64,000 bases of DNA from Schmidtea nova (taxonomy: Eukaryota), in the NCBI GenBank assembly GCA_044892505.1, contig CM097883.1:293632001-293696000 (forward strand). The letters are read 5' to 3'. Shown one piece after another: positions 36,498-58,813 of the stretch (position 1 is its first letter; the number at the start of each line of letters is the position of its first letter). The notes under the pieces were generated by a model. That model saw nothing but the letters and a program-made list of their open reading frames with translations, had not been told where the DNA came from and did not search any database. The position numbers and the translations under genes are program-made.

Positions 36498-36586
36498 AAC
36501 GATTTTAGGCGGGATTATCGGCCATCGCTTTGACTGAGGTTATCTCGAAATTTTCGGCAAAATTTGACTTACCTAAATGATAACAT

Positions 36587-37575
36587 TGTTGGGTTATTGG
36601 GTCGTTGGTGACTTTATGATTAACAAATTATTACCCTGACTCCAAAACGTGCTCTTTATTGACCCACAATAACAACTGACAACAGGAAATTTTATTGATT
36701 ATCACAAATAACTTCGATTTACAATGAACTGACCAAATTCAAACTACAGCTGATTATACAGTGCTTATTACGACACTATAGTGAAGAATAGCACTAGTGT
36801 ATAATCGATGTTCGAAATCACTCACTGCTGGGGAGTATAACAATTGGTAATTTGACTGGTTGTTTTCTTTATTTGACTTGGATTTACTCTCTGAATTTTA
36901 CTAGCTTTATTTTCTCAAACGCTTGAATAAGCTCCTGCTGCTTATCCCTTAGTTTCTGGTTTCAATTATTGGATTCTCCTTTTGACTCTTCTTTAACTTT
37001 CTCTGGACGTTTTTCTGCTTCCTTTTTAATGAATTTTACTAGCTTTATTTTCTCAAACGCTTTCTCTCAAATATTTTCTCTAACCACTTCTGTATACAAT
37101 GTTGTGTCTTTTTTCTGAGATGCTTCCTCCTTTTATACTTCTTCACTTTGTAGCACTTAAAATTATCAGCTGTTGTTACATTTTTCCAACATGATTTTCC
37201 ATTCATTTTCTCAGCAACGGAGTTATCTTTGACAGCTGTCAAGATAACCTCTGTTTTTCTCCTTTTTGCCGCTTCGGCTTGTTTGTTTTTGCCCACATTA
37301 TCTCTGACCGGTTGTCAAGATAAAATTCTTGTTGTTGTTTTTGTTTTTCCCAACTTTAGAATTTCTTCCTATTTGCACTAGTTAATTAGTGCTGACCTCT
37401 ATTTCGTTTTGCTTGTCTGATTTCTTTTCTTTTGTTTCCCCTTCTCATTTCTCATTCCTTTTTACTTCCGTTTTCTTTCCCAGGCTCCAATCAATCGTGT
37501 CATTCCCCATGACAATTTTCCCCCAAGTAATTTTGTTTATTTATTATATTATTTTGAATTTAGGTATCCTCAACA
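36587..37575 (-). repeat. 3' LTR (989 bp)
   Basis: TGTTGGG...CCTCAACA on +; identical by eye to 51971-52960 except for one C indel near 37285/52670. Confidence 0.98.
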
Positions 37576-37577
37576 TA

Positions 37578-37589
37578 TCTCCCCCCTTT
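37578..37589 (-). promoter_or_regulatory. Polypurine tract AAAGGGGGGAGA
   Basis: Purine run 2 nt upstream of the 3' LTR on the minus strand. Confidence 0.9.
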
Positions 37590-37866
37590 AAAAAAATTCG
37601 TCCTCGAATTAAAATCTTAAGTTATCTTTCGTACAATGCCCCCACTATTATTCTCCAATAAACGCTTCTCTATAATATTCTAATTTATTATTTTTACATA
37701 AATACTAGTTTACGATAATAGGGATAACAATTTTCATACTAACTGTAATAACAATAGCACTACCCATTTTAATAATGATAATTATCGTAGTGATAATAAA
37801 TATACTAATATTACAAATTTAAATTAATTCCTATAATTTTATCATCAGTATTGACAATAGTGATAA

Positions 37867-38295
37867 NNNNNNNNNNNNNNNNNNNNNNNNNNNNNNNNNN
37901 NNNNNNNNNNNNNNNNNNNNNNNNNNNNNNNNNNNNNNNNNNNNNNNNNNNNNNNNNNNNNNNNNNNNNNNNNNNNNNNNNNNNNNNNNNNNNNNNNNNN
38001 NNNNNNNNNNNNNNNNNNNNNNNNNNNNNNNNNNNNNNNNNNNNNNNNNNNNNNNNNNNNNNNNNNNNNNNNNNNNNNNNNNNNNNNNNNNNNNNNNNNN
38101 NNNNNNNNNNNNNNNNNNNNNNNNNNNNNNNNNNNNNNNNNNNNNNNNNNNNNNNNNNNNNNNNNNNNNNNNNNNNNNNNNNNNNNNNNNNNNNNNNNNN
38201 NNNNNNNNNNNNNNNNNNNNNNNNNNNNNNNNNNNNNNNNNNNNNNNNNNNNNNNNNNNNNNNNNNNNNNNNNNNNNNNNNNNNNNNNNNNNNNN
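37867..38295. other. Assembly gap (N run) inside the element's 3' non-coding region
   Basis: N characters flanked by (AAT)n-like low-complexity sequence. Confidence 1.
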
Positions 38296-38369
38296 ATAAT
38301 AATAATAATTTTATTAATTAATTTAGTTATCTTTATAATAAAAATTTTTTTTTTTTTTTTTTTAATTCA

Positions 38370-38580
38370 TTTTGCTATCTTGATGGCACTTATGTGCCTT
38401 CCATTTTTGTTTTTACTTCACCGCTATCCTGACTAGTTGTCAAGATAGCGGAATGTTTTTTTTTGTCCTTTCTGTGCCTGTGGCATTTATTGCCAAAAAA
38501 ATTGCCTCGCCGCTATCTGTCCAGATAGCAATTTAAAATTTGGTTTCGTTGGAATGTCGATTTTATAAAATCGACATTCC
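38370..38580. other. Cluster of five hairpins/palindromes, including a perfect 30-bp palindrome at 38551-38580
   Basis: ggcac-ttat-gtgcc; ccgctatcctgac-tagtt-gtcaagatagcgg; tggca-tttat-tgcca; gctatctg-tc-cagatagc; ggaatgtcgattttataaaatcgacattcc. Confidence 0.85.
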
Positions 38581-40275
38581 TTCGGATATTTCGTCATTAT
38601 TTTATGTTAAAAATAAATGTAAGTTTATTTATTATTTTTTTTTTATATGTATTAATAATAATAAAATAATAATGTTTTATCCGTTATAATAATGGCAATA
38701 TTTTCTTTTAAAAACTATAATTTATAATAATCCCTAACAACAATAACAATTTTAATGATAATTATAATGATGATAATAATAATAATTGAAATAATAATAA
38801 TAAAAATTAAGAAATTTGAATCTAAAATTGATGGTTTATCCGTAGTTATGAATGAAAATCTGAAAAAGCAGTACAAAGGTATGATACTATTAAACATTTC
38901 TAGAATTTGTCAGAACATCTATATAACAATGTTATCAATTTTGCAATTTTGAAGAATGGTTGATAAAATCGCCTTTGAATTCAGGCCGTATTATTTTTTT
39001 TTTGAGCATCCACAAAGTCAGGCGACGTTTTTGGTATCAAAATGTTAAGACATCTGTTCTTATTGAACTTGAACTTTCTATCACAATGTCAATTTTAATT
39101 GGTTTTACAATTTGGATTTTTACGAAAAGAATGGCCAACTCAATGATTGTTTTATATTATTTTGCTCCCACGCTTATACGTATGATTTTATTATTATTTT
39201 TTTTTTTTTAATTTAAATTCATCATCCTCACTACTGTCCACAATTGTAACAATATTAATACTAATGATAATAATAATACTATGATGATGATGATAATAAT
39301 AACAACATTAATAATAATAATAAAATAATAATATTCATAATAATAATAATAATAATAAATCGTAATATAATACTAATAATAATAACACTGATAATAATAA
39401 TGATGATATATAATATGATGGTGAAGATTTATTTTATTCTATTTTATTCTTTCAATTCTATCTTACTTCAATTCTATCCTGCTATTTCATTACCATTTAT
39501 TACCATTATTAATCCTATATTGACTCTGGTTTATAATTTTAAATTATTTCATTTTATTTAAACCTGCATTTGTTTATGATACTTTTTAAATATTTAATTT
39601 TTTTAATTTAATTTAATTTTTGTTTTATTTAATAGTTTTAATTATTTACTACTCTGATTTCATTATTTTGTATATATATATACATATATTTTACTTTATT
39701 ACACTTACCTACCTACCCTTATCATAGGTGTTATTAATTATTTTAAATTATCTCACCAGCTGGTTACGCCTGTGCTGCAGGCTGGTAGGGTAATTGGTTT
39801 TGAGAATCCAAATCCCGAAGTTCGAGATCTGCATTCTGAAAACCCTATAATTATTAAATTTTTTTATTTTTATTTTTATACATTTATTATATTAAATATA
39901 TATATTTTTATTTATACTTAAATACATATTTATATTACCTGAGTGACGTCCTATCGAACTTCTACTACAGGCGTATTAGTATCGTAATTTTTACTATACT
40001 CAATTATATATATTGTCATATATTTTATCATTACTATACAATTAATTAATTGATACTTCTAATTTTTTTTTTCACTGAAATTAATTTTACTCTAGGAACT
40101 ATGGGACTATCAATTTAATTTTTCGCAGAAATTAATATTTACTATTTTATTTTATTTTATTATTTTTTTTTGAATTTTTAATATTTAGATAATTTTGGGA
40201 TATTAATCATATTTTTTTTTTTTTTTTTTTTTTTTTGGGAAAATAAATAACAATAAGACTTTCTTTAATAAAATT

Positions 40276-41691
40276 CTATTTATCAATTACAATTTTGATA
40301 GTTTGGTTTCTTCCTCTATACGTGACGACAACCTTTGTTGCTTCCAATTCCTCACCATTGAACGTGATCATCTTATCGACCACTATTCCTTCTTTTGTTT
40401 GATTTCCTTTTTCAACACTATTTTGTTGCATCATTATTTTGTCCATTTCCACAATTGCATATTTAAATAAATCAAGTTTTTTCTCAACCATCATTTTCGC
40501 AGTTTTCTCACGAGCAATATGCATGTGTTCCACCATGTGAATGTCTTGTTCCATTTGCTGAACTTCTGCTTTCCTCTTCTCTTTTGGTTCCTCCATCTGC
40601 TCACTGGTTGTTGGAGCCTTTCTTTTCCTATACTCTTCTAACGAATATTTTCTTTTGCTGGTTGTTTCAGCACACTCTACATCATCCTGCCATTCATTTT
40701 CTATGGCCAAATAAATTCTTCTAATTGCATCAGTGTCTTCTAATGCCGTATGATTCCCTTTTTGCATTCTGATGCCACATATTTCTTCGGCTACTATTGA
40801 CAATTTATACCATTGCCCGTTCCTTGTGACTCTTCTTTTTGTCAATGCTCGAGCTGCCGCCAAATCGCGAATACCCCATAGATCCCTTGTCTGTACTCCA
40901 CTGTACAATAGTTCGCTTTGGAGATCATGTCCAACCAAGATTTTCCTTGCCGTTAATTGCTGAATTTTCCTCTGACTCTTGTATTGATCATCTTGATTTC
41001 TTGACATCTTCTCTGTGATGCCGTGAATTTGGGTAACGTAATTTTTTAGCTTTTCTCTGGGGGTTATTAATGAGTTATACAATATTCTTCCGTCATAGTT
41101 TATTAAACAAATAGACAGCGGAACCATCTTGTTTTGCTCACTTACGCCATATTCCGCGTCCATGAACATAATATTTTTTCTAATTTCTTCTTTTGTCATT
41201 TGTTTTCTCAAAAATGATTTTCGGTGCTTTAACATTTCTTCGGTTATCGGGAGTAACCTATTTTCTTCTTCATTGGTCATAATTTGTTCTAATGCCGGGA
41301 TTGTTGGAGCTGGTCCTCGGCATTCTAAAACAATGCAAGCCGTTCCATTGGCTGCTCGCATCTTCTTATGCCATATTTCTTTTGATATCTTCCATGATGA
41401 ATTAGTTTCCAATGTTTGTAGAACCGTTGCATCATTCTCTAAAATTTCTACTCTTCCTTTAAAAACATGAACCTCCCATGTCTCTTCGTTTCTTCTTATT
41501 AACACTTCTGAAAATTTCGTATTGGATTTCCATTCCAATTCCACCATACATATTCTCATTTCTTCATTCCCTAACCTTACCCAATTAGGAATTTTCAAAT
41601 TTTCTTCTATTACGATAACTTTGTCTGTATAGCTTCTTCTTTCTTGATAATATTTCCCGTATAATCTTGCTGGTTTGTTGATTTTTTCCAT
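40276..41691 (-). CDS. ORF2: 471-aa protein with a possible cupin-like N-terminus, a REX4/ISG20-like DEDDh 3'-5' exonuclease (aa ~174-333) and a charged C-terminus
   Basis: ExoI FMDAEYG (D178, E180), TQIHGIT, ILVGHDLQSE (E260 at the ExoII position), ExoIII HTALEDT (H314, D319). Motif order and spacing match REX4/ISG20. Confidence 0.85.
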   Translation of the reverse strand: MEKINKPARLYGKYYQERRSYTDKVIVIEENLKIPNWVRLGNEEMRICMVELEWKSNTKFSEVLIRRNEETWEVHVFKGRVEILENDATVLQTLETNSSWKISKEIWHKKMRAANGTACIVLECRGPAPTIPALEQIMTNEEENRLLPITEEMLKHRKSFLRKQMTKEEIRKNIMFMDAEYGVSEQNKMVPLSICLINYDGRILYNSLITPREKLKNYVTQIHGITEKMSRNQDDQYKSQRKIQQLTARKILVGHDLQSELLYSGVQTRDLWGIRDLAAARALTKRRVTRNGQWYKLSIVAEEICGIRMQKGNHTALEDTDAIRRIYLAIENEWQDDVECAETTSKRKYSLEEYRKRKAPTTSEQMEEPKEKRKAEVQQMEQDIHMVEHMHIAREKTAKMMVEKKLDLFKYAIVEMDKIMMQQNSVEKGNQTKEGIVVDKMITFNGEELEATKVVVTYRGRNQTIKIVIDK

Positions 41692-41971
41692 TCTTCCTTT
41701 AGATTTAATTTTGATCTTTTTTTTTTTTTTTTTTTTTTTCTTTAAAAATTTTCCAAGTCAAACTCTGAAAACAACCGCCATCTTTATATCCAAAAATTCT
41801 CTCCCCCTACAGTGTGATTATTCGACCAATCAAATTACATCAATACAATTTAAATTTTAACAACATATTTTACAACAAAAGATTATCAATTGACTATTAA
41901 AGAATCATTAACTAAAGAAATATAAGGGAAATAATACTGTATATTGTCATTACATGCAAAATAGTAGCTTA

Positions 41972-44900
41972 CTACACCCTTGATTCCAACCACATTGATA
42001 TCTGCGGCTTAGAATATTGAAAATCACAATTAGAATTGTTTCTTTTGTCAGTTCGTGAAATGAGGATAAAGCAAACGAGCAAGATCACTCTTTGTCTTGC
42101 CCTTATGATACATACAGAGAACATATCAACACAATTGTTAGTGAATGAATTTTCTTTATAGTTTAATGAAAAGTTTTCGATTTTTATACATGAAAGAGTT
42201 AATGGTAGAGTCAGATTGTGATCAAGGGTTTCTTTAGAGGGTTGATCGAGAACGAAATAAATCTGTCTGTCTTTAATGCAAATAGTTTGCCATCGGTCTG
42301 GATTGGTTTTCCCTTTGCAGTATTGGTTTGCTATAAGGAGTTTGCTTGTTTGTGATTCGGTTCCTGAGTTCTGAGTACTGACTCTCGCTCTGTTTCGGTG
42401 TTCTTTTCCCTCGACCTCAGCTTTATATGAAACGATTATTGTAGTATCACAATTTTCAATTTGAACTTGATTCGTTTTATTCCAGTATATCATCTCAATT
42501 TGAACATTTCTTTCAAACAATTGATTGTTTGTATAAATTCCTTTATTACGAAGTGGTTTTTTGTAATTGTTCATTGACAGATTAAGAGTGAGAACTACTT
42601 TCATTAAGTATACGTCTATTTTCTCTAAAGATGGTAATTTATTGACCGCATCTGGTATATCCATTTTTATTCCAACTGTGTTCGTTACCATATTTATTAA
42701 AACTGTCGTTATGAATAAAACTTTATTCATATAACTCAATGGAGTTGGATTTTTCTGGAACTTTTGCCGGATTTCTATTTCATCATTTGTTTTCTTTTGT
42801 TTATTTCGTAGCTGATGTTCCAGTTCAGGCACTTTCTTACATCTATTGGCATGAACTACAATTGTTTCTGCTTTTTTATTATTAATTGGTCGCAATTTTA
42901 GATTTGTTGCAGTCGCATCACAGACTGTATACGGACCTTTGAATGGTCTTTGTAATTTTGTTGAGAGTCCCTTTGTTGGCTCTGGCTTATTTAGATAAAC
43001 TAGGTCGCCAATTTTTATTCCGTGCTCATGCGCTTTTTTATCATAACTTTCTTTATATTGCTCCTGTCGATATTTTATTTTTAATCCGGCTTGAGTCCAA
43101 GCGGATTGTAAACGTTCTTGCAGAGCAACTTTATAATTTGGAATCTCTAAATATTGGGAAGTTGGTGATTGGAACTCTAAATCGATCGGCATATTATTTC
43201 GTCTTAGGTACATAAGATAAAAGGGCGTTTCTCCCGTACTCTCATTTACTGAATTTCGATAGGCATATAAGCATGGTCTAATGAACAGATCCCAGTCTTT
43301 TTGCTTTCGATTCACATAGGATGAGATCATATTAATTAATGTACCATTAAATCTTTCCACTAACCCATCTGTTTGTGGATGATATGGTGATGTGCTCAAT
43401 TTATATATACCAAATAATTCTGTAATAGATTTAAACAGATCACTCTGAAAGTTTGTCCCTTGATCTGTTAGCAATTTCTTTGGAACGCCATATCTAAATA
43501 TGATTTCTTCAACAAATATTTGTGCAACAGTTTCTGCCTTTTGGTTTGGCATAGCAAACGCTTCTGGCCATTTGGTTAAATAATCACAGAATACCAAAAT
43601 GTATTTATTTCCATTCGTTGTCTCGGGTAAAGGCCCGATAATATCCATTGCTGAAAATTCCATTGGCGCTGCTGGTATTGGCATTGGTTTTAGAGGAACC
43701 TTTATTTTCTTTCCAGTATTTCTTCGAGTCAGGCATATTTTGCAAGTGTTGCACCATTGCTTTACATCCTGTTCCATTGTATTCCAGAAATATTTTAGTT
43801 TTATTCGCGACAGCGTTTTTCTTGCTGACAAATGTCCTCCCAATGCCCCGTCATGGTACTGTAACAATAATGTATTTCGATGTATTATTGGAACTACTAT
43901 TAACAATTCATCATTTTTAATATATTTTAATATACCTCTGTGAATAACATATTTGTGTTTTTCCTCGATTAATTGTTTCAATTCTTTATCTTTTCTCATT
44001 ATTACTGTATGTTTTATTATTTGTTTCAGCTCCTCATCCATTTCTTGATCTCTCTGTAGCTCTGCCATATTATTTGCTGCTTTAACTACTGCAAATACAG
44101 TATCTCTTAAATTTATTTCTTCCTGGTTATTATTAATTTCCCCATTTGGAATTCTAGACAAGGTATCAGCATTAGCATTTGATTTTCCTGTTCGATATTT
44201 GATTTCAAAGTCATATTCTTGCAAGGCTAACGACCACCTAATTAATTTACTTGCTGCATCTCGATGCTTCATTAACCATTGTAATGGATTATGGTCTGTA
44301 TAGACAATGAATTTTCGGCCAACTAAGTACTGTCGAAATGTTGTTATGCCATATACTAGAGCAAGAGTTTCTTTTTCGATTGTTGAATAGTTTTTTTCAT
44401 GTGGTTTCAATGATCGACTAGCATATGCGATTACATGATCTTTTTCTCCTTCAACCTTTTGTCCTAATACCGCTCCCAACGCAAAACAGCTTGCGTCCGT
44501 CATTAACATAAATGTCTTTGTGAAATCAGGACCTCGTAATATTGGATTCATCATTAACTTTTGTTTGAGTATTTCGAAAACATCCTGCTGAGCTTTGCCC
44601 CACACGAATTTTGTGGTTTTCTTTAATAGCATCGTTAATGGTTGAGCAAAATGTGCAAAGTTTCTAATAAATTTTCTGTAATAGCTTGCTAACCCGAGAA
44701 ATTGTCTAATATCATCAACATTTTTTGGAGTTGGATAATCTTTAATTTTCTTAACATTTTCTGGATTTGGTTGTAGACCTTTTCGTGAAATGATATGTCC
44801 AATATACACCACCTCTGACTTTCCCCATTCACATTTTGATGGTTTGATTTTAAGATTTGCTTCTCTGAGCCGTTTAAATACTGTTTCCACATCTCTCATG

Positions 44901-47900
44901 TGCTCTTCGAAATTACCTGAGAAGATTATAATATCATCAATATATACCAAGGCGTGTGGAATATCTCGCAGCACAAAATTCATTCCTCTTTGAAATGTCG
45001 CTGGTGCACCTGTTAAACCAAATGGTAAAACATTAAATTCATACAAACCTTTTCCATCTGAAAACGCTGTTTTCCCTTTATCTGTCTCTTTAACTTTGAA
45101 TTGATTGTAGCCTTTGTTTAAATCAATAACAGTAAAATATTGAGCTTCTCCCATTTTGTCAAACATTTCCTGAGGAACCGGAATGGGATACGTATCCTTT
45201 CTTGTCACTTGATTCAGTTTTCGATAGTCAATACAAAATCTCAGTTCACCGTCTTTCTTTTTGACTACAACAATAGAGGAAGAAAATGGTGAAAAACTGT
45301 CTCTAATAATATGGAATTCTTTCATAGCCTTTATTTGTCTATCGCTTTCGTCTTGATGCGCATACGGAATTCTGTATGGTCGTAATTTAATTGGAGTTTC
45401 ATCAATTAATGGAATTTCATGTTCAATTATATGAGTTACTCCCAAATCATACTCATGTTTCGCAAAAATATCTTGATATTTTCTCAACAATTTTGTAAAT
45501 GTTTGTGTTTGCTCTTGCGTCAACTCTGCACTGTCAACTTGGGGTTCTTTGTATATTTTAATATTTTTTGGTAATCTTTTATTATTGATTTTTAGGATTT
45601 TTGTTAGCTTTCCTAATTTCGTTTTTGGTTTAAATGACACTTCTTTGTCGCTATTGTTAGTGATGCGAACAGGAATTAATTGATCTTGAACTTTCACTAC
45701 TTCGTCGCATATTGGAGTATCATATTTGGCAATTAAATTCTCACTTGGTTGAAATATAAATTCATCGTCTGGAACTCCCATTGTATTCACATAACAAATA
45801 ACTTCACTCTGAGGTGGTACTCTTAACGTTTGATTTAGAAACACATCTCCCGTTTCATGAATAACTTTTCCTGTTTTTCCTACAATTAGATTTCCGGTTT
45901 TCAAATCAAGAGAGACTCCTTCCAATTGCTCCAACACATCCATCCCTACCAAACACATTACTGGGCTATCTTTCATTATTAGCGCATTATGAACAATTTC
46001 TTTATTTCCAATATTGAATTTTACTCTGATCTGTCCAATGATATTTAATTTGTTTTTCGTCATTGATCGTACAACTTCTTCTGTGCTTTTCATTCGTGCT
46101 CTTTCCCCTGAATTTAATAATTTATCTGATAATATTGTATTGCTTGAGCCTGAATCTATTAATGCTTCGACTCTATGTTTATTCACTTGTATCCATATTC
46201 TTGGCTGTCTTCCTTTATTTCCAATTGTCATTAATGCATAATTTCCTGGTAATCCCAGCATGTTTCTCCTTTCAATTTCCGCACTAGTTGGTGCGATTTG
46301 CTCATTTGTCAATTCAATGTTTTCAACTGGTCTCATTTCTTTTAACTTCTCTACTGGATATATTGGTGCTGTTGGTAGAAAAGTTTTTGGAATGCATAAT
46401 CGACTGAATGTGTCTGTTTCACTTGTTTGTGGTACCGATTGTAATAAATTCAAAGATTTAGATTTTTCTCGTATATCATTAATTTTAATTTTACTGTTTT
46501 TATAATAATATATTGGAGGTACTTTTACTTTACCCCCATTCCCACTCTCGCTGTCCGAACTCGAATCAATGTCTCTTCCGTCATTATTTAGTCGTGACTT
46601 GACTTTCCCCATCTCTTTATATTGATGCTTTGTAATTACAAATCTTGCCAGACATGGAATACATCCGATAATCAGTTTCCAGGACCATCCCGAAATAACA
46701 TATAGCTGATGAGTAGTTAGTATTTGAGATATTATCACTTTAATCACCACGAACATAACATAAATTCCAATTAATCCTGCACATGCTTGTCCCAAAAACA
46801 TGAATTTCCCCCATATCTTTTTCATCGTATTGTACGTTGCTTTCTTATAATGATCTGGTGTTAGTAAATAATCATAATTTACTTTGCCTTCACCACTTGG
46901 TAATATAGTATCAATCATTTCAGTAATGACTCGTTCTTTCTTTGATGGAAATAGTAGATTTCTTCGGGCTTCTTCAACATCTTCTTGAGAATACAACTCA
47001 GTTTGTGCTAATTTGTCCAATGATGTAAAATTTATTAAATATTCAAGTTTTGTTAATTCTAATTTTTCTGGATTTCTTACTCCTTTATGATCTGGTAATG
47101 ATATCCACGAATCTGATGTTAGTCGATATAATGGTGCGAGCAATCGGTTACATTTTAAAAGTTTAGGTTTCGCGTCTTCTTCCAACAATATTCGAGTTAT
47201 TGGCTCCATGAATCTCAATTTACCATTAACACTTACTGGCAATTCATTGGTACATTGCTCGTACTTTATAATTTGCACGGGAATCTCGTTGCATTTATAG
47301 CTATACAATGCTTCTCCAAATACTCTTGCAAACACACCGTTTTCTGATATTAACATAGGTGCTACCAAGTTTGGATTTGTGACTGCCATCGCCATTCTGT
47401 TCCGTAGTATTTCTTTATTCAACTTACAGTCGTTTAATATCATTTCTCTGTAAATATTTTCCATAATACTTTGACTGTAGTGGAACAAATAGTCTATTTT
47501 GTTATTAAAATAATTTGTCAATTTGATATCCGTACTATGTATTTGGACTTGAGCTTCCTCGACTCTTTTCTTGGATACATAAATTCCTTTATAATTGGTC
47601 TCATACACCGTTTGACCACATTTATTTACCACATTTTTTCGAATAAATCTCATACCGTCATCTAATAAAGTTGACATCAAAACAACTGGAGTTTTTCTGG
47701 TTCTCAATGGGGTAATTCTGATTGTCATGTCCGGTTTTGCCTCCACATTCAAATTTTCCGGTCTTTCTCTCAACTGTTCTCCACTCATTTCATTAAAACT
47801 CATTGTTTTCAAATGTATTAAATTACATAGATTTGTCTTAACTTCGTACACCAAAATTGATTCTCCTGTTTGACAGCTAGCCTGCTTCATATTGCAGAAT

Positions 47901-50900
47901 GGATGCGTTTGTAACTTGCCTGTGTCGTCATCAAAAGCTCCTTGGAATTCTCTCAATTCCGTCAAATACTCTTCCATCACAACAATTTGATCAATAACTT
48001 CTCCATTCATTTTGTACGGTTCTCCTTTACAATCCCCATTAGCCTTTATTGTTCCTTTTTCGATAATTGTTTCTCGTATAGCATGATTTAATTTAGCTTT
48101 CAATTTAACCTCGGGGCTAATTTTCACTTCCCCTGTTTGAAACGCAGCCATGCAATTTTCTGGGTTTACATCAACTGGCCTTGGGATTGAATACATTTTA
48201 ATTAGTGATGTGTGACTCCATTTGCCACAATAAAACACAAAGCTCGTTCTCTTTACAATGCACTCTCTTACTACCGCATGTCTAAAGCCTGATTCTTGGT
48301 ATACATGATACTTTACATCATTTTCAACTGTTAAACTCATTGGGTGTGCATCAGAACATTCTGTCATGTCCACCATGGAATAAATCTTTCCCATTTTGGT
48401 TTGAGAACAATCGTACGCAATTAAAGATGTTGTTTGCGTCGTAATCGCACATAATATTATGATCATAAACATTATAAATGGAAGTTTCATAGGTTTACCT
48501 CTCGGTATTCCTTCGTAACTTTCTCTCTTTTCGACTGATGATTCTGTTTTTTGTTTAACTAATTTCTCCCAGCCTCCAATTTCCTTTATCCATTTGCCCA
48601 CATGCTTATACAATACTTTGCTCGCCTTTTTGATTACTTCATCTCGTTTTTCCATATTTAAATAATCGTGTGTCCCGATTTCTAACAAAATATAACTCGT
48701 AATTGTCAATACTAAATCTCTATCCATTTCTCCTGTCATCATATTGGTTATCACTCCATCATCACAGAATTCCTTGTTGTCTTTTACATATCTCAAGACC
48801 ACATAAAGTCTCTTTTTCAACTTTTTTGCAATTTTTCTCACATATAATTCTACTTGTGTTTTCTCTGCTGCTTCGCCATATAATTCATTTGCCAGCGCAC
48901 GTACAACCTTTTCAGTCTCTTTTAATTCCTTCTGACCTCTCTCACCTTGGAGTCTCTGTATTATTTCACATCTCACCTCGTATAAATCCTTGCGTTGTCT
49001 TTCCTCCGTAATATTATCAATCTCCATTTCTGTCATATACGCTTCATTTTTAACTTCCGTTTTTATTATACTTCCATCAATTCTCTGCTCAGTTTCCTGT
49101 TCCTCTCCATGTTCTGTCATTTCTTGTTCCTCTGATATTTCATCCTCATTATCCATTGTTTCACTGCCGAACTCTGGTAATTCAATTTTATAACCTTTTT
49201 CTACTTCATCTGTATCCACTTGTTTCACTGCAATTATATCATTAATAAAATTTTGATCCGTAAGAAATCTATCTTCGTTACGCTTTCGTGGCATACATCC
49301 ACAATCAAATAAATATTCATCATCGTCTAGCTCAAAACCTTTATACGTTAGCACAATTATTCCATCATTGCCCATGATTTCTGCTGTTCTTCGACGAATT
49401 TTATTCACTTTCGTATACCAATGTTCATCCGTATATTCTACTCCTTGACCATTTATTTTTAACAGTACTACGAATGGCTCATTATAAATCCCTTCTTCCC
49501 TGAATTCTTGACCAAATTTTTGAATAAGAGTTTTTATTGTTTTACCATATTCGTTTTCCGCATTCATATAGGGTCTAACACAGTCTAGAATTTTTAACTT
49601 GTCTTCTACTTTGAGTTCTAAATTCAAAATATTGTTTAATTTATCAATAATGTCACCTGTGTTTCCTTTAAGCAATGCTTCCATTAGTTCAAATCTGATT
49701 TCGTCAGAGTCATTTGTTACTGTTTTTTCCTTGGCGATCATATTCGTCATTTGCATTTCATTTTCACCGCCAGGAATTAATCCATAATCTACCAAGAATT
49801 CGCCATCCTCTAATACTTGATCCATAAATTTAAGTTCCACCGCCCAACTTTCACACTTGTGCATTACTTCTCTTTTTAGCTCGCGTACTTTCTCGTATGC
49901 ATCGATTTTATAGTTGGATTTTGTACCATCTGGAGCATTCATTTGGATAAATATAGGATCTAACCATTTATTTTTCCGTAGATATTGCCCAAATATTCTC
50001 ATAAAATCTTTGAATACATCTCGTTTTTCCACACTTGCTGCATAACATTCTGCACAAAGTTTAATAACAGTTTTAATTTTTGTCAGACTTAAAGGTATTT
50101 TAGTTAGCCTCGTAAATAATTCTGTTATTTTCTGGGAATTTACGTCTGGTTCCGCAACTAATTTTCTGATTTTGGCAATAAATACAGTACTCCTTTCACT
50201 TTGTATGTCGGCTTTAGCTTTATTGATTTGTACTTTATCTGATTCTGACTCGCTTTCGCTCAACTCTTTCCTCGTCATCATGTGGGTATCTGTTTCTTCA
50301 TCCGATTCAAATTTGGCTATCAATTTATTCAGTTTTTGGTTCAATTGTTTAACATCGCTTTCGATCTTTTCTCTAAAACCATCTTGCTGAACATAGGCTA
50401 TATTATCATTCGATGGATTTTCATCTTGAAATCTTATTGTTCGCTTTAATATTGGCCTTTGAAATTTATTCGTATTTCTTGGACAGGATCTTGCAATATG
50501 TCCATAATTTCTACACAAATGGCATTGAATTTGTCCGTTCAAATTTACATTGTCTCTCTGTGGTGAAGGTGAAGTTGAGGGTGATCTTGATCTTGAAAAA
50601 CAATTTCTGGAAACATGTCCTTTTCTACCGCAGCGATAACATTGCACTTCATTAACATTGGATTTTATATCAGGAACTGTTCTCCGAAAATTGGTTCCCC
50701 TATCGTTGGTACGATAATCTTGGGTTATTCTTCTGGGTGTACTATCGGAATTATTTTTGAACCAACACTGGTTTGCATAATGGCCAATCTTCTTGCAATT
50801 TTCACACTGGATCACTCTGGATCTCTCAGCGCCTTGGAAATTACGGCTTGGTCTATTTATATTTAACTCGGTTCTCCATTTGGGTGATGGACTTTTTGAT

Positions 50901-51574
50901 CGCTGGAATCTATTTTCTGGCTCCCAATTGTTTTGGGTTGGTGTAATTGATCTTTCCCTTTGAGCTGGAATAATCGCGAACACATCAGATTTGTTTTTGG
51001 TGCTCTTCAAATTCAATTCGATTTTCATTGCCTTTTTTACTAGTTCATCAAAATTATCATAATCTACACAGCATAATGCGGTTTTTATTTCTTTGTTTAT
51101 TCCTGACAAAAATTGGTCTTGGATTAATTCTTGCATTTGTTGGGCTAGGCCTGGTTGTTTTGAGTCTTCTTCAAATGATTTACTTGCGAGGGTTGACAAA
51201 TGATACGCAAATTCGCTCACTGTTTCATTTGGATTTTGAACTCTACTATAAAACTTTTGACGCATTAATCTTTTGATATCTCCTCCGATAAGTTTTGCAG
51301 CTAACGCATCTTTCAACTTTGCCCAATCATTACCAATTAATTTTTTATCAATCTGTTGCCAAACCTCTCTAGCTGCTCCTTTAAGATATAAAGGTAATCT
51401 CTGAATCATAATCGCTTGAGACCATCCGTACGCCGTTGCATACATGTAGTAATCACTCATAAAATCTACAAAAATAACCGGATCTCCTCCATATTGTTCC
51501 ACAGGTAATCTTTGACAACTTGCAAAATCATTATTTTCTTTAATAACTGATACTGGCAAATCTTCACTACTCAT
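41972..51574 (-). CDS. ~3200-aa Gag-Ubl-Ubl-Bcl2-Env-PR-RT-RH-IN polyprotein (first ATG at 51574; the ORF track starts at GTG 51619)
   Basis: Three CX2CX4HX4C knuckles; ALIDSG protease (46148-56); YIDD RT (44933-44); TDAS...EKETLA...TDH RNase H; HHCC and D,D,E integrase; GPY motif. No stops or frameshifts. Confidence 0.97.
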   Translation of the reverse strand: MSSEDLPVSVIKENNDFASCQRLPVEQYGGDPVIFVDFMSDYYMYATAYGWSQAIMIQRLPLYLKGAAREVWQQIDKKLIGNDWAKLKDALAAKLIGGDIKRLMRQKFYSRVQNPNETVSEFAYHLSTLASKSFEEDSKQPGLAQQMQELIQDQFLSGINKEIKTALCCVDYDNFDELVKKAMKIELNLKSTKNKSDVFAIIPAQRERSITPTQNNWEPENRFQRSKSPSPKWRTELNINRPSRNFQGAERSRVIQCENCKKIGHYANQCWFKNNSDSTPRRITQDYRTNDRGTNFRRTVPDIKSNVNEVQCYRCGRKGHVSRNCFSRSRSPSTSPSPQRDNVNLNGQIQCHLCRNYGHIARSCPRNTNKFQRPILKRTIRFQDENPSNDNIAYVQQDGFREKIESDVKQLNQKLNKLIAKFESDEETDTHMMTRKELSESESESDKVQINKAKADIQSERSTVFIAKIRKLVAEPDVNSQKITELFTRLTKIPLSLTKIKTVIKLCAECYAASVEKRDVFKDFMRIFGQYLRKNKWLDPIFIQMNAPDGTKSNYKIDAYEKVRELKREVMHKCESWAVELKFMDQVLEDGEFLVDYGLIPGGENEMQMTNMIAKEKTVTNDSDEIRFELMEALLKGNTGDIIDKLNNILNLELKVEDKLKILDCVRPYMNAENEYGKTIKTLIQKFGQEFREEGIYNEPFVVLLKINGQGVEYTDEHWYTKVNKIRRRTAEIMGNDGIIVLTYKGFELDDDEYLFDCGCMPRKRNEDRFLTDQNFINDIIAVKQVDTDEVEKGYKIELPEFGSETMDNEDEISEEQEMTEHGEEQETEQRIDGSIIKTEVKNEAYMTEMEIDNITEERQRKDLYEVRCEIIQRLQGERGQKELKETEKVVRALANELYGEAAEKTQVELYVRKIAKKLKKRLYVVLRYVKDNKEFCDDGVITNMMTGEMDRDLVLTITSYILLEIGTHDYLNMEKRDEVIKKASKVLYKHVGKWIKEIGGWEKLVKQKTESSVEKRESYEGIPRGKPMKLPFIMFMIIILCAITTQTTSLIAYDCSQTKMGKIYSMVDMTECSDAHPMSLTVENDVKYHVYQESGFRHAVVRECIVKRTSFVFYCGKWSHTSLIKMYSIPRPVDVNPENCMAAFQTGEVKISPEVKLKAKLNHAIRETIIEKGTIKANGDCKGEPYKMNGEVIDQIVVMEEYLTELREFQGAFDDDTGKLQTHPFCNMKQASCQTGESILVYEVKTNLCNLIHLKTMSFNEMSGEQLRERPENLNVEAKPDMTIRITPLRTRKTPVVLMSTLLDDGMRFIRKNVVNKCGQTVYETNYKGIYVSKKRVEEAQVQIHSTDIKLTNYFNNKIDYLFHYSQSIMENIYREMILNDCKLNKEILRNRMAMAVTNPNLVAPMLISENGVFARVFGEALYSYKCNEIPVQIIKYEQCTNELPVSVNGKLRFMEPITRILLEEDAKPKLLKCNRLLAPLYRLTSDSWISLPDHKGVRNPEKLELTKLEYLINFTSLDKLAQTELYSQEDVEEARRNLLFPSKKERVITEMIDTILPSGEGKVNYDYLLTPDHYKKATYNTMKKIWGKFMFLGQACAGLIGIYVMFVVIKVIISQILTTHQLYVISGWSWKLIIGCIPCLARFVITKHQYKEMGKVKSRLNNDGRDIDSSSDSESGNGGKVKVPPIYYYKNSKIKINDIREKSKSLNLLQSVPQTSETDTFSRLCIPKTFLPTAPIYPVEKLKEMRPVENIELTNEQIAPTSAEIERRNMLGLPGNYALMTIGNKGRQPRIWIQVNKHRVEALIDSGSSNTILSDKLLNSGERARMKSTEEVVRSMTKNKLNIIGQIRVKFNIGNKEIVHNALIMKDSPVMCLVGMDVLEQLEGVSLDLKTGNLIVGKTGKVIHETGDVFLNQTLRVPPQSEVICYVNTMGVPDDEFIFQPSENLIAKYDTPICDEVVKVQDQLIPVRITNNSDKEVSFKPKTKLGKLTKILKINNKRLPKNIKIYKEPQVDSAELTQEQTQTFTKLLRKYQDIFAKHEYDLGVTHIIEHEIPLIDETPIKLRPYRIPYAHQDESDRQIKAMKEFHIIRDSFSPFSSSIVVVKKKDGELRFCIDYRKLNQVTRKDTYPIPVPQEMFDKMGEAQYFTVIDLNKGYNQFKVKETDKGKTAFSDGKGLYEFNVLPFGLTGAPATFQRGMNFVLRDIPHALVYIDDIIIFSGNFEEHMRDVETVFKRLREANLKIKPSKCEWGKSEVVYIGHIISRKGLQPNPENVKKIKDYPTPKNVDDIRQFLGLASYYRKFIRNFAHFAQPLTMLLKKTTKFVWGKAQQDVFEILKQKLMMNPILRGPDFTKTFMLMTDASCFALGAVLGQKVEGEKDHVIAYASRSLKPHEKNYSTIEKETLALVYGITTFRQYLVGRKFIVYTDHNPLQWLMKHRDAASKLIRWSLALQEYDFEIKYRTGKSNANADTLSRIPNGEINNNQEEINLRDTVFAVVKAANNMAELQRDQEMDEELKQIIKHTVIMRKDKELKQLIEEKHKYVIHRGILKYIKNDELLIVVPIIHRNTLLLQYHDGALGGHLSARKTLSRIKLKYFWNTMEQDVKQWCNTCKICLTRRNTGKKIKVPLKPMPIPAAPMEFSAMDIIGPLPETTNGNKYILVFCDYLTKWPEAFAMPNQKAETVAQIFVEEIIFRYGVPKKLLTDQGTNFQSDLFKSITELFGIYKLSTSPYHPQTDGLVERFNGTLINMISSYVNRKQKDWDLFIRPCLYAYRNSVNESTGETPFYLMYLRRNNMPIDLEFQSPTSQYLEIPNYKVALQERLQSAWTQAGLKIKYRQEQYKESYDKKAHEHGIKIGDLVYLNKPEPTKGLSTKLQRPFKGPYTVCDATATNLKLRPINNKKAETIVVHANRCKKVPELEHQLRNKQKKTNDEIEIRQKFQKNPTPLSYMNKVLFITTVLINMVTNTVGIKMDIPDAVNKLPSLEKIDVYLMKVVLTLNLSMNNYKKPLRNKGIYTNNQLFERNVQIEMIYWNKTNQVQIENCDTTIIVSYKAEVEGKEHRNRARVSTQNSGTESQTSKLLIANQYCKGKTNPDRWQTICIKDRQIYFVLDQPSKETLDHNLTLPLTLSCIKIENFSLNYKENSFTNNCVDMFSVCIIRARQRVILLVCFILISRTDKRNNSNCDFQYSKPQISMWLESRV
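46620..48424 (-). other. In-frame glycoprotein domain, chuvirus-like / herpes gB-like class III fusogen
   Basis: Begins LIAYDC after a hydrophobic signal-like segment; EC..KRT...FYCGKWSH matches the chuviral C..R.IYYCGMHSH pattern; C-terminal WGKFMFLG..AGLIGIY...GWSW membrane region. Confidence 0.8.
48551..48997 (-). other. In-frame Bcl-2-like domain
   Basis: BH2-like WIKEIGGWEKLV (compare Bcl-xL WIQENGGWDTFV), BH3-like VVRALANEL, BH1-to-BH2 spacing preserved but NWGR absent. Confidence 0.7.
49280..49957 (-). other. Two in-frame ubiquitin-like domains (aa ~555-625 and ~715-780)
   Basis: ELKFMDQVLEDGEFLVDYGL and VLTYKGFELDDDEYLFDCGC compared with ubiquitin [20 protein letters not shown]. Confidence 0.75.
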
Positions 51575-51947
51575 TATGGGTTCCTTTTTACTTTTGCTTC
51601 GTAAATTATATCGACTCACTTTAATAAATTATTTTCTCAAATTTCGCAAAATCTAAATTCAAATTTATTACCACAATTAATAATTTACCTTTTCACAATT
51701 TCGTTAAATAATCTCTCTTTATCACAATTATTTTCACTCTCTTTTCAATAAATTTTATTTCAATAATTCTTCACCACTTTATTTCGCCGGATATATCCCA
51801 ATTACTTTTTCAATCGCTCCTCACCAACGTTTGATCACGTCGGATTATGGTACAACTGTTTTATTCAATACTATTTTCACCAACCTCTGATCACGTCGTA
51901 TATATATAACAATTACTTTTCTTCAATAATCTTTTCACCAACGTCAG

Positions 51948-51965
51948 ATCACGTCGGGCTCACCA
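51948..51965 (-). promoter_or_regulatory. Primer binding site, tRNA-Trp (TGGTGAGCCCGACGTGAT)
   Basis: 17/18 match to the tRNA-Trp PBS TGGTGACCCCGACGTGAT, 5 nt from the 5' LTR. Confidence 0.92.
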
Positions 51966-51970
51966 AATAA

Positions 51971-52960
51971 TGTTGGGTTATTGGGTCGTTGGTGACTTTA
52001 TGATTAACAAATTATTACCCTGACTCCAAAACGTGCTCTTTATTGACCCACAATAACAACTGACAACAGGAAATTTTATTGATTATCACAAATAACTTCG
52101 ATTTACAATGAACTGACCAAATTCAAACTACAGCTGATTATACAGTGCTTATTACGACACTATAGTGAAGAATAGCACTAGTGTATAATCGATGTTCGAA
52201 ATCACTCACTGCTGGGGAGTATAACAATTGGTAATTTGACTGGTTGTTTTCTTTATTTGACTTGGATTTACTCTCTGAATTTTACTAGCTTTATTTTCTC
52301 AAACGCTTGAATAAGCTCCTGCTGCTTATCCCTTAGTTTCTGGTTTCAATTATTGGATTCTCCTTTTGACTCTTCTTTAACTTTCTCTGGACGTTTTTCT
52401 GCTTCCTTTTTAATGAATTTTACTAGCTTTATTTTCTCAAACGCTTTCTCTCAAATATTTTCTCTAACCACTTCTGTATACAATGTTGTGTCTTTTTTCT
52501 GAGATGCTTCCTCCTTTTATACTTCTTCACTTTGTAGCACTTAAAATTATCAGCTGTTGTTACATTTTTCCAACATGATTTTCCATTCATTTTCTCAGCA
52601 ACGGAGTTATCTTTGACAGCTGTCAAGATAACCTCTGTTTTTCTCCTTTTTGCCGCTTCGGCTTGTTTGCTTTTTGCCCACATTATCTCTGACCGGTTGT
52701 CAAGATAAAATTCTTGTTGTTGTTTTTGTTTTTCCCAACTTTAGAATTTCTTCCTATTTGCACTAGTTAATTAGTGCTGACCTCTATTTCGTTTTGCTTG
52801 TCTGATTTCTTTTCTTTTGTTTCCCCTTCTCATTTCTCATTCCTTTTTACTTCCGTTTTCTTTCCCAGGCTCCAATCAATCGTGTCATTCCCCATGACAA
52901 TTTTCCCCCAAGTAATTTTGTTTATTTATTATATTATTTTGAATTTAGGTATCCTCAACA
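51971..52960 (-). repeat. 5' LTR (990 bp)
   Basis: Near-identical partner of 36587-37575; adjacent to the PBS. Confidence 0.98.
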
Positions 52961-54704
52961 ACATTAAACTTTATTAGGTCTTTCATACGCTCTGACCATC
53001 ATACTGCCGCGTTTATTTGGACAGTCCTTTTGACTCAAACTTCTTATTTCACCATCAATCGCATTCATTACCAGTTCATCATTCATAGATTTTATTAATG
53101 AGTGGATTTATCATCAACCTACTGTCCAATCATTGTTACGGCTTTTGTTGTTGAGCTACGAATTTGTAGTCACTCATCGCTACACATATCGAACGTGGTG
53201 GTTATATCATCGATCAAACTCATTTAATTGTAGCTGCGGGTATGATCATTTACTTATTATCAATCGCCATTCACTACTTATGAAATCAGTCACTCACTCT
53301 CTAAACACATTCATTCGGCAGCACATTAAACAAGCTTCTACATCATCCGACCTCAGAAAATTCTCTGATTGAATCCTCGTCATGGTTATTTGTCAATTTG
53401 ATGCACTGAAACATTCCAATTCATGACGTTCGACTCTCGCCAGCCTCATTTCATAACGACTTTACATTTTCGGGGTGAAATCATGCTATTAAGGCCCTTG
53501 CAGGGTTATGTTGTCCTCTCATCCTTGGTATGGATATATCCCTTCCCGTTCCATTAGCGCTGTAACGCCGCATCAGCCATCACCGCCAGGTGATGCGCTG
53601 AGAGGCCCAGTTTTCGCCCTTCAAATCCTACGACCTCCGGGTTGCGACCTTATAGATTTTAAACATGAGTAATACATGAGGGTTTAACACTGACATGATA
53701 TCAAAAACAAATCACCAACGTACTTTTTATTTCGTTTGATTCTACAGATTTACTTGATACAACACAAGACTTCACTGATAAAAATGACATCACATTCTGA
53801 ATTTGATCACTACTTATGTATTGTTTTGGCCTCGCCTTCTGAACAATCAGAATTCAGTACGGTTGCCTATTTGTCAGTCATTTATTTTTTATTGTTTGTT
53901 TTTCTTTCATTAAACCGGTGAGTTTTGGTGGTTACTCATTTGCTTATGACTTTATGACTTTTTTATTTTAGTTCTCTACATACTATCCGAGCGGTCCACC
54001 CCGGCATTTGCTGCGTTCAGCAATTTCATTTTACTCTGGTAATTCTATTGGCAGATTTTATTATTCATCGCTTTTCTGTTTCAGGCATCAGTGGTTTTCA
54101 ATTACTCAATGGTAATTTATTATATATTGTGCTTTCTTTAGTGCTGACATTTTGACAGCTCTTGTTCTCGCCTGATTGGTTTTGCTCGATCATCACGCGG
54201 CTATCTCATCTCGGTCTAGTGGTAAGTTCTGTATTGTTATTACTGTTTTAGTATTATGTTATTACTTTCAGGTTTCGCCGTGCTTCGATGATTATCTGTC
54301 TATCGCTGATGGTTTGCAATTTATTTTATTTAATTTTATTACTATTTTCCTATTTAATTTGTACTTTCTTTTAGATTATTTACGATTCGCTGGGCCCAAC
54401 AAGTATAACAAACGTACTCACCCATGACGATCCAACTAGGGAATTGATTATCCAAATTGGTGGTGATCAACAATGGCATTTTATTGATTTTCTTTTCTTT
54501 TATATACTCTTACTAGCGGGATTCTCTCAAATTTTCTTTTTAGTTACAGCTTTAGCGAATCTTGGAAAATTCTGAGATTCTCACTATTCTTCACCATAAT
54601 TTTCACTTCATTAGATGCGTAAAATATCATATTCTCGTGCAATATTAATTATATATCTAAATAATAAAATTATTATTTTTTTAAATATAATCTTTAGTTT
54701 TTCA

Positions 54705-57484: not shown

Positions 57485-58813
57485 TGTTGGGTGGTGTTAC
57501 AAAATTTTTTACAGACTTCTAGGGGTTAATATAACCCACAGCGCAACATAAATATTACTCAATCACCCACGTGTACCCTCAGTTCTTCCCCAAATAACTA
57601 GGTTGGTACTGTACACGGTGGCGAGAATCTAGTGAGCAGGTGAGCTCCGTTGCTGAAACTACTCCTCACTAAATTCTCTCTTTCGGATTCTTGCTGCCGA
57701 TAGAAGGACTTACGCATCTACTTTCTTTACGGTCTTATCGTATGATTTTCCTCCTAATGATCTATTACTTTTCGCTATCAACAATATACCTTTATTCCTC
57801 CTCAATTAATTCAACAAAACAATGAATGCTCCTGACAATCCCATTTCCTCTCGTCTAAATTTGGTTCCGGTACGCCTAATCGCCTAACCCTCCGAAGAGA
57901 GTTAGGACGAGAGGTCATTTATCGCCCATCAGGTCGCGATACCATCAGGACATGCCATTAGATATTTTTCCCCGGAGGTTCTGAGGGTTTACCCGCGAAC
58001 AATCATAAAGTTTTAAAAGTCACAACATTTATTGAATACCATTCACATAACATGATTACAGATTACCATACACAAAACAAACCTACTCACCTACGCGACT
58101 GGCTGGCGAAACACGAAATCGACATTTTGCCTTCACTTGCAGAAACTAACTGAGTTAATTCAACTGATTTTTGCGTCTATTTATATTAAAATAGACTGAC
58201 ACCCACGCATGTTTTCATTCAAATGATTCTATTATGATTGAAACTCAATTTATCTGTTTCAATAACCGATTATTTATTTAATTTTTTGTAAATTTAATTT
58301 TACAATTTAATTTATTTATTTCTAAGATATTTGATTTTCATTCCGATAAATGATGTGTGTACCTTGTTTCGGTACATTTATTGATTGATTAAAACAATCA
58401 ACTTTAATTGAATTCTATTTTTATTTCTACCTCTGTTATTTTCCCGATATTTCAATGGGGATTTTTTTTATACTTTTTAATAAATTATTTTCTTTATTCT
58501 GATATCAATTTTATTCTTTGATCATACTTTTCGTTATTTTGTACAGCGATGATCTTCTCCATTCAATTCTCGTGTGGTCCTTTGTGTGTAAATGTGACAT
58601 GCGCTCAAATTGTGGGCTCTCTTTTGAGATGCCTCTTTTCTATCGTTTAAGCCCTATCTTGACCGACTTATCGAATGCGGTTCGTATGATTACTATTGTA
58701 CTTTACTGTTTTATTTTCTTTTGGTAAATTTACTGCGTGTTTTTAAACTTGTTTCTTTTTTAATTTTTGATGAATTCAAACAAAATTCTATTTTTGATTT
58801 CGCCAGTCCAACA
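57485..58813 (-). mobile_element. Solo LTR (1329 bp) of the element-A family inserted in the polymerase pseudogene
   Basis: TGTTGG...CCAACA ends, flanks CCTC/CCTG (3 of 4 TSD match), homologous to 3216-4629. Confidence 0.85.

Follow-up and report, generated by a model that had tools for sequence, protein, structure and literature searches.

The window analysed here is a stretch of 64,000 nucleotides of the Schmidtea nova genome (assembly GCA_044892505.1, contig CM097883.1, positions 293,632,001 to 293,696,000 of the forward strand), which contains a Ty3/gypsy element of 16.4 kb on its minus strand (36587-52960). In the single polyprotein of this element, an envelope protein (Env) predicted to be a fusion protein of the gB/chuvirus type lies in frame between Gag and the enzymes, and the chain is probably threaded through the membrane of the endoplasmic reticulum (ER) and cut there by signal peptidase.

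Organization of the element and its copies

The two 990-bp long terminal repeats (LTRs) differ by one gap (99.9% identity). As in other Ty3/gypsy elements, LTRs, a target duplication, a primer-binding site (PBS) and a polypurine tract were found, together with protease (PR), reverse transcriptase (RT), RNase H (RH) and integrase (IN) in this order with YXDD, and a GPY/F region after IN. One stop-free frame encodes Gag, two ubiquitin-like (Ubl) units, a Bcl-2-like domain, Env, PR, RT, RH and IN. The features are as follows, with amino acids (aa) numbered along this open reading frame (ORF).

52961-52964 and 36583-36586: target duplication, 4 bp, ATGT
51971..52960 (-): 5' LTR, 990 bp, TG...CA, 99.9% identity with the 3' LTR
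51948..51965 (-): PBS, putatively tRNA-Trp-like, the same in six of six families
41972-51628 (-): single ORF, 3,218 codons from stop to stop, first ATG at 51574
50400..51574 (-): Gag, with Retrotrans_gag domain (Pfam E 3.6e-8) and three CCHC knuckles (zf-CCHC E 2e-9)
49778..49954 (-): ubiquitin-like unit 1, aa 559-617 (Pfam ubiquitin E 0.008, below cut-off)
49274..49465 (-): probable ubiquitin-like unit 2, aa ~722-785, without a Pfam match of its own; it shares the motif, and the equivalent part of the database protein P0001 matches twice
48539..49021 (-): Bcl-2-like domain, aa 870-1030 (profile against PDB, Pfam)
48425..48490 (-): putative internal signal peptide, aa 1047-1068, predicted cut TTS|LIAYDC
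46808..48424 (-): predicted class III (gB/chuvirus-type) fusion ectodomain, aa 1069-1607
46721..46807 (-): Env transmembrane (TM) helix, aa ~1608-1636 (KD19 2.52)
46634..46705 (-): second, weakly hydrophobic segment with Lys, Pro and Cys, predicted from its insertion score to lie on the membrane surface and not to span it
46343..46375 (-): PTAP and YPx(3)L, motifs resembling late domains of the endosomal sorting complexes required for transport (ESCRT), in the Env-PR linker, aa 1752-1762
45917..46210 (-): aspartyl protease, DSG (Pfam)
44213..45265 (-): reverse transcriptase and RNase H (Pfam)
42854..43891 (-): integrase with H2C2 zinc finger, rve core and GPY/F region (Pfam and sequence)
41975..42733 (-): post-integrase extension, a second signal-like segment and the remnant of a shortened type I membrane protein
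40276..41757 (-): ORF2, DEDDh-type 3'-5' exonuclease (PF00929, E 4.6e-6)
36587..37575 (-): 3' LTR, with the polypurine tract before it

The motifs named in the original prediction all lie inside the one stop-free minus-strand ORF of 3,218 codons, where LPFIMFMIIILCAITTQTTS|LIAYDC begins at aa 1049 (48484), LIAYDC at aa 1069 (48424) and FYCGKWSH at aa 1132 (48235); the Env segment corresponds to aa 1049-1670. The placement of Env between Gag and PR in one frame was also correct, except that Env does not directly adjoin Gag, since about 640 aa with the two Ubl-like units and the Bcl-2-like domain precede the signal. Similarly, no stop or frameshift occurs before PR, although the hydrophobic region does not lead straight into it: the two are joined by a hydrophilic linker (aa 1666-1806) some 140 residues long.

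At least 40 matches at 98-100% identity to the element were found in the genome (40 of 1,196 candidates were scored), and the element amplified recently. The frame from Gag to IN is uninterrupted in 19 of 39 other copies; in the remaining ones the breaks are scattered and none recurs at the Gag/Env or Env/PR junction (rows L011-L049; rows L050-L061 were dropped as another family whose 'breaks' were alignment noise). These scattered breaks rule out a programmed stop or frameshift at either junction. Because of the Pfam match of Env (PF24664, E 1e-88), the 40 of 40 matches at 98-100% and the 19 of 39 intact frames, the long Env frame is taken as real and not as a product of chance or assembly. 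Contigs from four runs of uncertain type span 30 of 30 bins, and the sole joint listed within the ORF is one low-depth contig in Gag; contigs of this kind do not inform on splicing, expression or copy number. Three of the copies (L015-L017) stand in tandem about 15.85 kb apart (G000:C1:547587033-547628743).

At least five sister families with the same layout are present in the genome (L062-L083, G000), with ORFs of 3,345-3,442 aa and many frame-intact copies. They are 73-76% identical to the element in Env and 84-86% in RT-RH. A slippery-looking heptamer at aa 1532 is common to five of the six families and coincides with a conserved Asn-Phe encoded by AT-rich codons. Among the database relatives, the polyproteins P0001-P0004, P0007, P0010 and P0017 contain two or more aspartyl-protease-like domains, some of them after integrase.

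Fold and conservation of Env

The ectodomain (aa 1069-1607) has 14 Cys and a single N-glycosylation sequon (N1533), and the hydropathy of the segment peaks at aa 1052 (KD19 2.02), at aa 1615 (2.52) and, more weakly, at aa 1642 (1.45). Env matches the viral fusion glycoprotein family PF24664 with 298 bits. An AlphaFold model of aa 1069-1644 as a monomer, predicted from 112 sequences (pLDDT 91.5), has a gB-like multi-domain fold with a long central helix. The top matches of this model in the PDB were all herpes gB (E 3e-15; herpes simplex virus gB, VIA Z 10.0, 427 residues), those among viral models were chuvirus-type glycoproteins (E 5e-40), and its first strand aligned with gB domain IV (5ys2). 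The listed best structural matches did not include vesicular stomatitis virus G or GP64 (Bourbon virus glycoprotein, Z 5.9); a similarity to either protein may still exist. The single Env sequence retrieved nothing meaningful from the PDB, and a profile reached gB only at E 0.056 or weaker. The originally proposed class III, chuvirus/gB-like fold is thus supported by the Pfam match, the predicted model and its structural neighbours. In a quick tree of 25 rows, the Envs located within polyproteins formed their own clade (SH-aLRT 100).

Env is maintained by purifying selection. Among 38 copies, the variants shared by at least two copies were 17 synonymous and 6 non-synonymous, compared to 179 and 337 for private variants (p 2e-4), and the shared variants of integrase were similar to those of Env (20 and 7). 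In a comparison with one sister family, identity is 74% for Env, whose synonymous sites are saturated, 23% for the Bcl-2-like part and 26% for the post-integrase part. It could be argued that Env is a passenger in an element that moves within cells only, tolerated because it is in frame, as any in-frame insert must avoid stops; however, the constraint on Env equals that on integrase and is far above that on the Bcl-2-like and post-integrase parts of the same frame, and the 14 Cys and the predicted fold are intact, which makes this explanation very improbable.

Predicted membrane topology and processing of the polyprotein

The segment before Env was compared across 18 polyproteins, this element and 17 database proteins. 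The sequences preceding the xxA[YF]DC motif are not alignable, and all of them have a 10-aa hydrophobic core that ends 3-11 residues upstream. Small residues occupy position -3 in all 18 and position -1 in 17 of the 18 (background 0.27-0.29), which is the signal-peptidase rule of small residues at (-3,-1), and the N-terminal flank of the core is the more positive one in 13 of 18. The claim that the chain threads the ER, with a cleavable internal signal, one span and cytosolic Pol, is supported by this conservation across relatives, and it is probable that the polyprotein is cut by signal peptidase and carries Pol on the tail of Env.

The same hydrophobic segment could instead persist as an uncut signal-anchor, comparable to the foamy-virus leader peptide, with Gag-Bcl2 joined to Env across the membrane until a different protease cuts. 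Its core has membrane-spanning length in several relatives (score -1.8 to 2.6), and PMC13524379 mentions two TM domains around some gB-type ectodomains. However, the (-3,-1) pattern is present in 17 of 18 polyproteins, an ordinary N-terminal signal precedes the same junction in the stand-alone glycoproteins P0022 and P0136, and the N-terminus of Env falls in domain IV. Since the crown of post-fusion gB sits far from the membrane, refolding would likely be prevented by a tether left uncut five residues ahead of the first Cys. An uncut anchor is accordingly improbable, more so than the use of several messages considered below.

After the ectodomain, one good TM segment, the best 19-aa insertion score, was found in 16 of 16 polyproteins. 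Insertion scores were -0.9 to 3.2 for this segment versus 3.7-8.1 for the second one, whose median was 5.0 in 76 stand-alone glycoproteins, and no hydrophobic stretch was found between the second segment and PR in the polyproteins where PR could be located. A two-span topology with Pol in the lumen is rejected on the basis of these scores and the tail motifs.

The tail motifs read PTAP-IYPVEKL here (aa 1752-1762) and resemble ligands of TSG101 and ALIX, respectively, and are thus putative binding motifs; such ligands act only in the cytosol. In the linkers between TM and PR, YPx(1-3)L is present in 16 of 21, versus 1.6 expected (10 of 15 among database proteins), and P[TS]AP in 6 of 21, versus 0.1 expected, five of the six being sister families. 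The tails of stand-alone chuvirus-type glycoproteins (P0026-P0154) contain YPx(1-3)L in 28 of 76 (5.6 expected) and P[TS]AP in 14 of 76 (0.7 expected), and because these relatives are likewise enriched, the motifs appear to be inherited with the glycoprotein. A co-translational signal cut would leave Gag and Pol on separate chains, so that Pol would enter particles as the tail of Env. Consistent with this, no join of Gag to Pol without Env was found among the integrase loci examined, which, for one young family, is a modest test: among 55 integrase matches of the family at >=96%, 46 were paired with an Env match; at the nine unpaired loci, Env was colinear in four, the element was truncated within Env in three and no element sequence was found upstream in two (10 kb taken).

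The Bcl-2-like region, compared as a profile with the PDB, had Bcl-xL as its best match (E 3.4e-4), and all 60 matches shown were Bcl-xL or Bcl-2; Pfam Bcl-2 was matched at E 0.057 in the element and at 2.9e-5 in a sister family. A Bcl-2 homology 2 (BH2)-like GGW and the central hydrophobic helix are kept, and the NWGR of BH1 found in anti-apoptotic members is not conserved. Judged by these comparisons the domain is real, and an anti-apoptotic function is not claimed. Stand-alone homologues of the region were not found at 88-282 aa, the lengths covered. In the sister families measured, 45-55 aa separate the end of the domain from the cut, and the cut signal could therefore serve as a Bcl-2 tail anchor. 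Relatives without an upstream BH2-like motif (e.g., P0001-P0005) have the equivalent signal, which suggests that the signal role comes first. Regarding the originally proposed double use of this segment as Bcl-2 anchor and Env signal, the adjacent Bcl-2-like domain was confirmed, and the anchor role would be secondary at most.

A second signal-like segment follows IN in 12 of 13 full-length polyproteins, and a C-terminal TM (score <=3) is present in 10 of 13. Post-integrase sequons number 68 versus 36.5 expected in 11 polyproteins, with 72 versus 59.5 in the Pol control (the element's family and P0003 were left out, and the relatives are not independent). A Pfam immunoglobulin (Ig) domain was found in P0005 only (E 4e-8). 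The type I membrane protein is whole in five sister families; the version of the element is about 130 residues shorter, has arginines in its TM-like segment and shows neutral-looking variation (11 to 22). For the post-integrase part, the profile had no match in the PDB, no Pfam match was obtained in the clade of the element, and no stand-alone homologues were found at 179-571 aa, the lengths covered; the part belonging to the element's own family was uninformative (Atlas 0.81). The presence of a post-integrase membrane protein across the clade supports repeated ER threading.

Here it is proposed that Gag-Ubl-Ubl-Bcl2 would be made in the cytosol, after which the internal signal would insert N-in/C-out and be cut after Ser1068 by the host signal peptidase, the N-terminal product staying tail-anchored until the protease of the element frees the capsid. 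Env would fold in the lumen and halt at its TM (aa 1608-1636), and the next hydrophobic stretch would lie on the membrane surface. The Env tail (PTAP, YPxxxL) and PR-RT-RH-IN would face the cytosol, recruit ESCRT for budding and bring Pol into the particle; with Gag and Pol no longer one chain, Env would be needed for Pol packaging. The enzymes may be released by the protease at hydrophobic sites flanking PR, and the second signal after integrase may re-enter the ER to give a membrane protein resembling Ig or fibronectin type III (FN3) domains, whole in the sister families and shortened in the element. The 1:1:1 ratio of Gag, Env and Pol in the original prediction is only the default expectation of one ORF.

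Alternatively, the one ORF could be served by several messages, through splicing, early polyadenylation or internal initiation (e.g., at Met1047), which would yield unequal amounts of Gag, Gag-Pol and Env(-Pol), with the full polyprotein rare and no 1:1:1 ratio. Retroelements generally need an excess of Gag, some single-ORF elements regulate this at the RNA level, and the signal has a Met in front of it in this element and in four of the six families of the genome. In contrast, 8 of 18 relatives have no such Met, and a strict motif search, a weak test, gave an acceptor-like site upstream of env in one of six families. No relative with PR has a stop behind the Env tail, so that any Env made still carries Pol. 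Several messages are considered unlikely.

A number of points weigh against an ER-threaded polyprotein with Pol on the Env tail. The topology scores are simple sums over a hydrophobicity scale and not the output of a trained predictor. Sequons in the Env ectodomain are rarer than chance (33 versus 52 expected in 16 proteins), so glycosylation does not speak for a luminal position of Env. Both the signal and the late-domain motifs could be an inheritance from a stand-alone glycoprotein and would equally suit a spliced or internally initiated Env-Pol message; in 10 of 18 polyproteins, a Met is found at most 25 aa upstream of the signal core. YPx(1-3)L is a loose pattern, and the relatives in which it was counted are not independent. 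The lack of Env-less copies was seen in one young family. The FN3 lead of the post-integrase part is weak (Atlas 0.89, recognition below threshold), with a model pLDDT of 39.6, too low for a fold assignment, and Z <=6.1.

Taken jointly, the severing of Gag from Pol by signal peptidase, Pol as the tail of a fusion protein, late domains on Env and a second, Ig/FN3-like glycoprotein as receptor-binding or immune-decoy partner would be a route not described for retroelements; this combination is proposed tentatively, at somewhat less than an even chance.

Downstream of the polyprotein, homologues of ORF2 (38-43% identical) are found in four of five sister families, and its exonuclease possibly serves RNA processing or the evasion of nucleic-acid sensing. 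The interval between PR and RT is a conserved spacer of 215 aa without a dUTPase match in Pfam. In the 5' leader (window 51800-51965, minus strand), the word CGACGTGATC, derived from the PBS, is repeated three times within repeats of about 70 nt. The 3' untranslated region (window 37600-40270) is long and AT-rich, with (AAT)n-type tracts and a stretch of 429 N. Elsewhere in the window lie a decayed 39-nt (13-aa) repeat array with many stops (1585-2690, minus strand), old RT-RH-IN and IN remnants of distant LTR elements with 22-28% identity to the Pol of the element (12769-14742, plus strand, and 23085-23309, minus strand), and two copies of another dispersed repeat, 76-86% identical (3361-4520 and 57589-58717).

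Relation to known elements and implications

Env shares with chuvirus/Monjiviricetes glycoproteins (PF24664) and herpesvirus gB the family match, the predicted fold, the AYDC start, conserved Cys, a TM with a weak second segment and a late-domain-like tail; unlike Env here, those are stand-alone type I proteins with an N-terminal signal. In flaviviruses and hepaciviruses, a polyprotein of capsid, internal signal, envelope and cytosolic enzymes is cut by signal peptidase and a viral protease. The element resembles them in its working only, without homology, as it is reverse-transcribing, has a predicted class III fusogen and its enzymes would stay on the Env tail.

The novelty that the original prediction implied for an in-frame Env does not hold. 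The gene order had already been published in 2019 for the planarian element Burro, described in the Burro section of Arkhipova & Yushenova (PMC6431247) as having Gag, Ubl, BCL2, env and PR in one frame and termed there the first in-frame env between gag and pol. According to the same section, Burro/GYPSM1 has, like the element, one ORF with a three-CCHC Gag, Ubl, BCL2-like, an env matching mononegavirus glycoproteins, PR, RT, RH and IN. Burro, however, exceeds 30 kb with 4,873 aa, compared to 16.4 kb and about 3,200 aa here, and the element has no MATH, BIR or ankyrin match in Pfam up to E 1. By these sequence comparisons, the element is a compact relative of Burro and not Burro1 itself. Topology, signal cleavage, late domains and a post-integrase membrane protein are not discussed in the Burro section of that paper.

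Elements with GAG-ENV-POL order and gB-type Env have also been reported in nematodes, bryozoans and flatworms by Chary & Hayashi 2026 (PMC13524379), who state that the entry mechanism of gB-type errantiviruses is unknown. With its gB-type Env between Gag and Pol, intact ORFs and multiple copies, the element belongs with these HSV/gB-type errantiviruses. Smed_errantivirus_1 and _2 (45 and 215 copies) have the same order, a gB-type Env and multiple copies, and over Env aa 1102-1352 they share 176 of 251 (70%) and 171 of 251 (68%) residues with the element in a gap-free alignment counted by eye; the element is a distinct family in a different genome. Closely related elements are numerous in a planarian that serves as a standard laboratory species. 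The main text of that paper mentions signal peptides or two TM flanking ectodomains, and the words 'polyprotein', 'in-frame' and 'splic' do not occur in it; a word search of its supplements for fibronectin and Bcl gave no match, a weak negative because a control term was also missing. In addition, the BEL/Pao Atlas virus of a hookworm, as described by Merchant et al. 2022 (PMC9094657), has a single stop-free Gag-Pol-Env polyprotein, so that an envelope derived from a polyprotein was already known in LTR elements. In contrast to the element, its Env is last, class II and phlebovirus-like, and Pol stays joined to Gag.

For the processing model, the tail motifs and the second membrane protein, no published description was found in a search mostly at the level of abstracts, and a description of the tail or of the post-integrase protein may exist in Grohme et al. 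2018 or in a functional study of Burro1. The contribution here is sequence evidence for likely ER cleavage and likely carriage of the enzymes on the Env tail, which offers a concrete, sequence-based model of how such elements may process their chain and enter cells. Were Pol to travel on the tail of Env, the element could not dispense with Env even when moving inside one cell, which could explain the strong selection on Env. The late-domain-like motifs in stand-alone chuvirus-type tails suggest glycoprotein-driven ESCRT budding in those viruses. Additionally, the missing attachment partner may be the fast-evolving membrane protein after integrase; a second Ig/FN3-like glycoprotein, if true, would supply the partner which a lone gB-type fusogen lacks.

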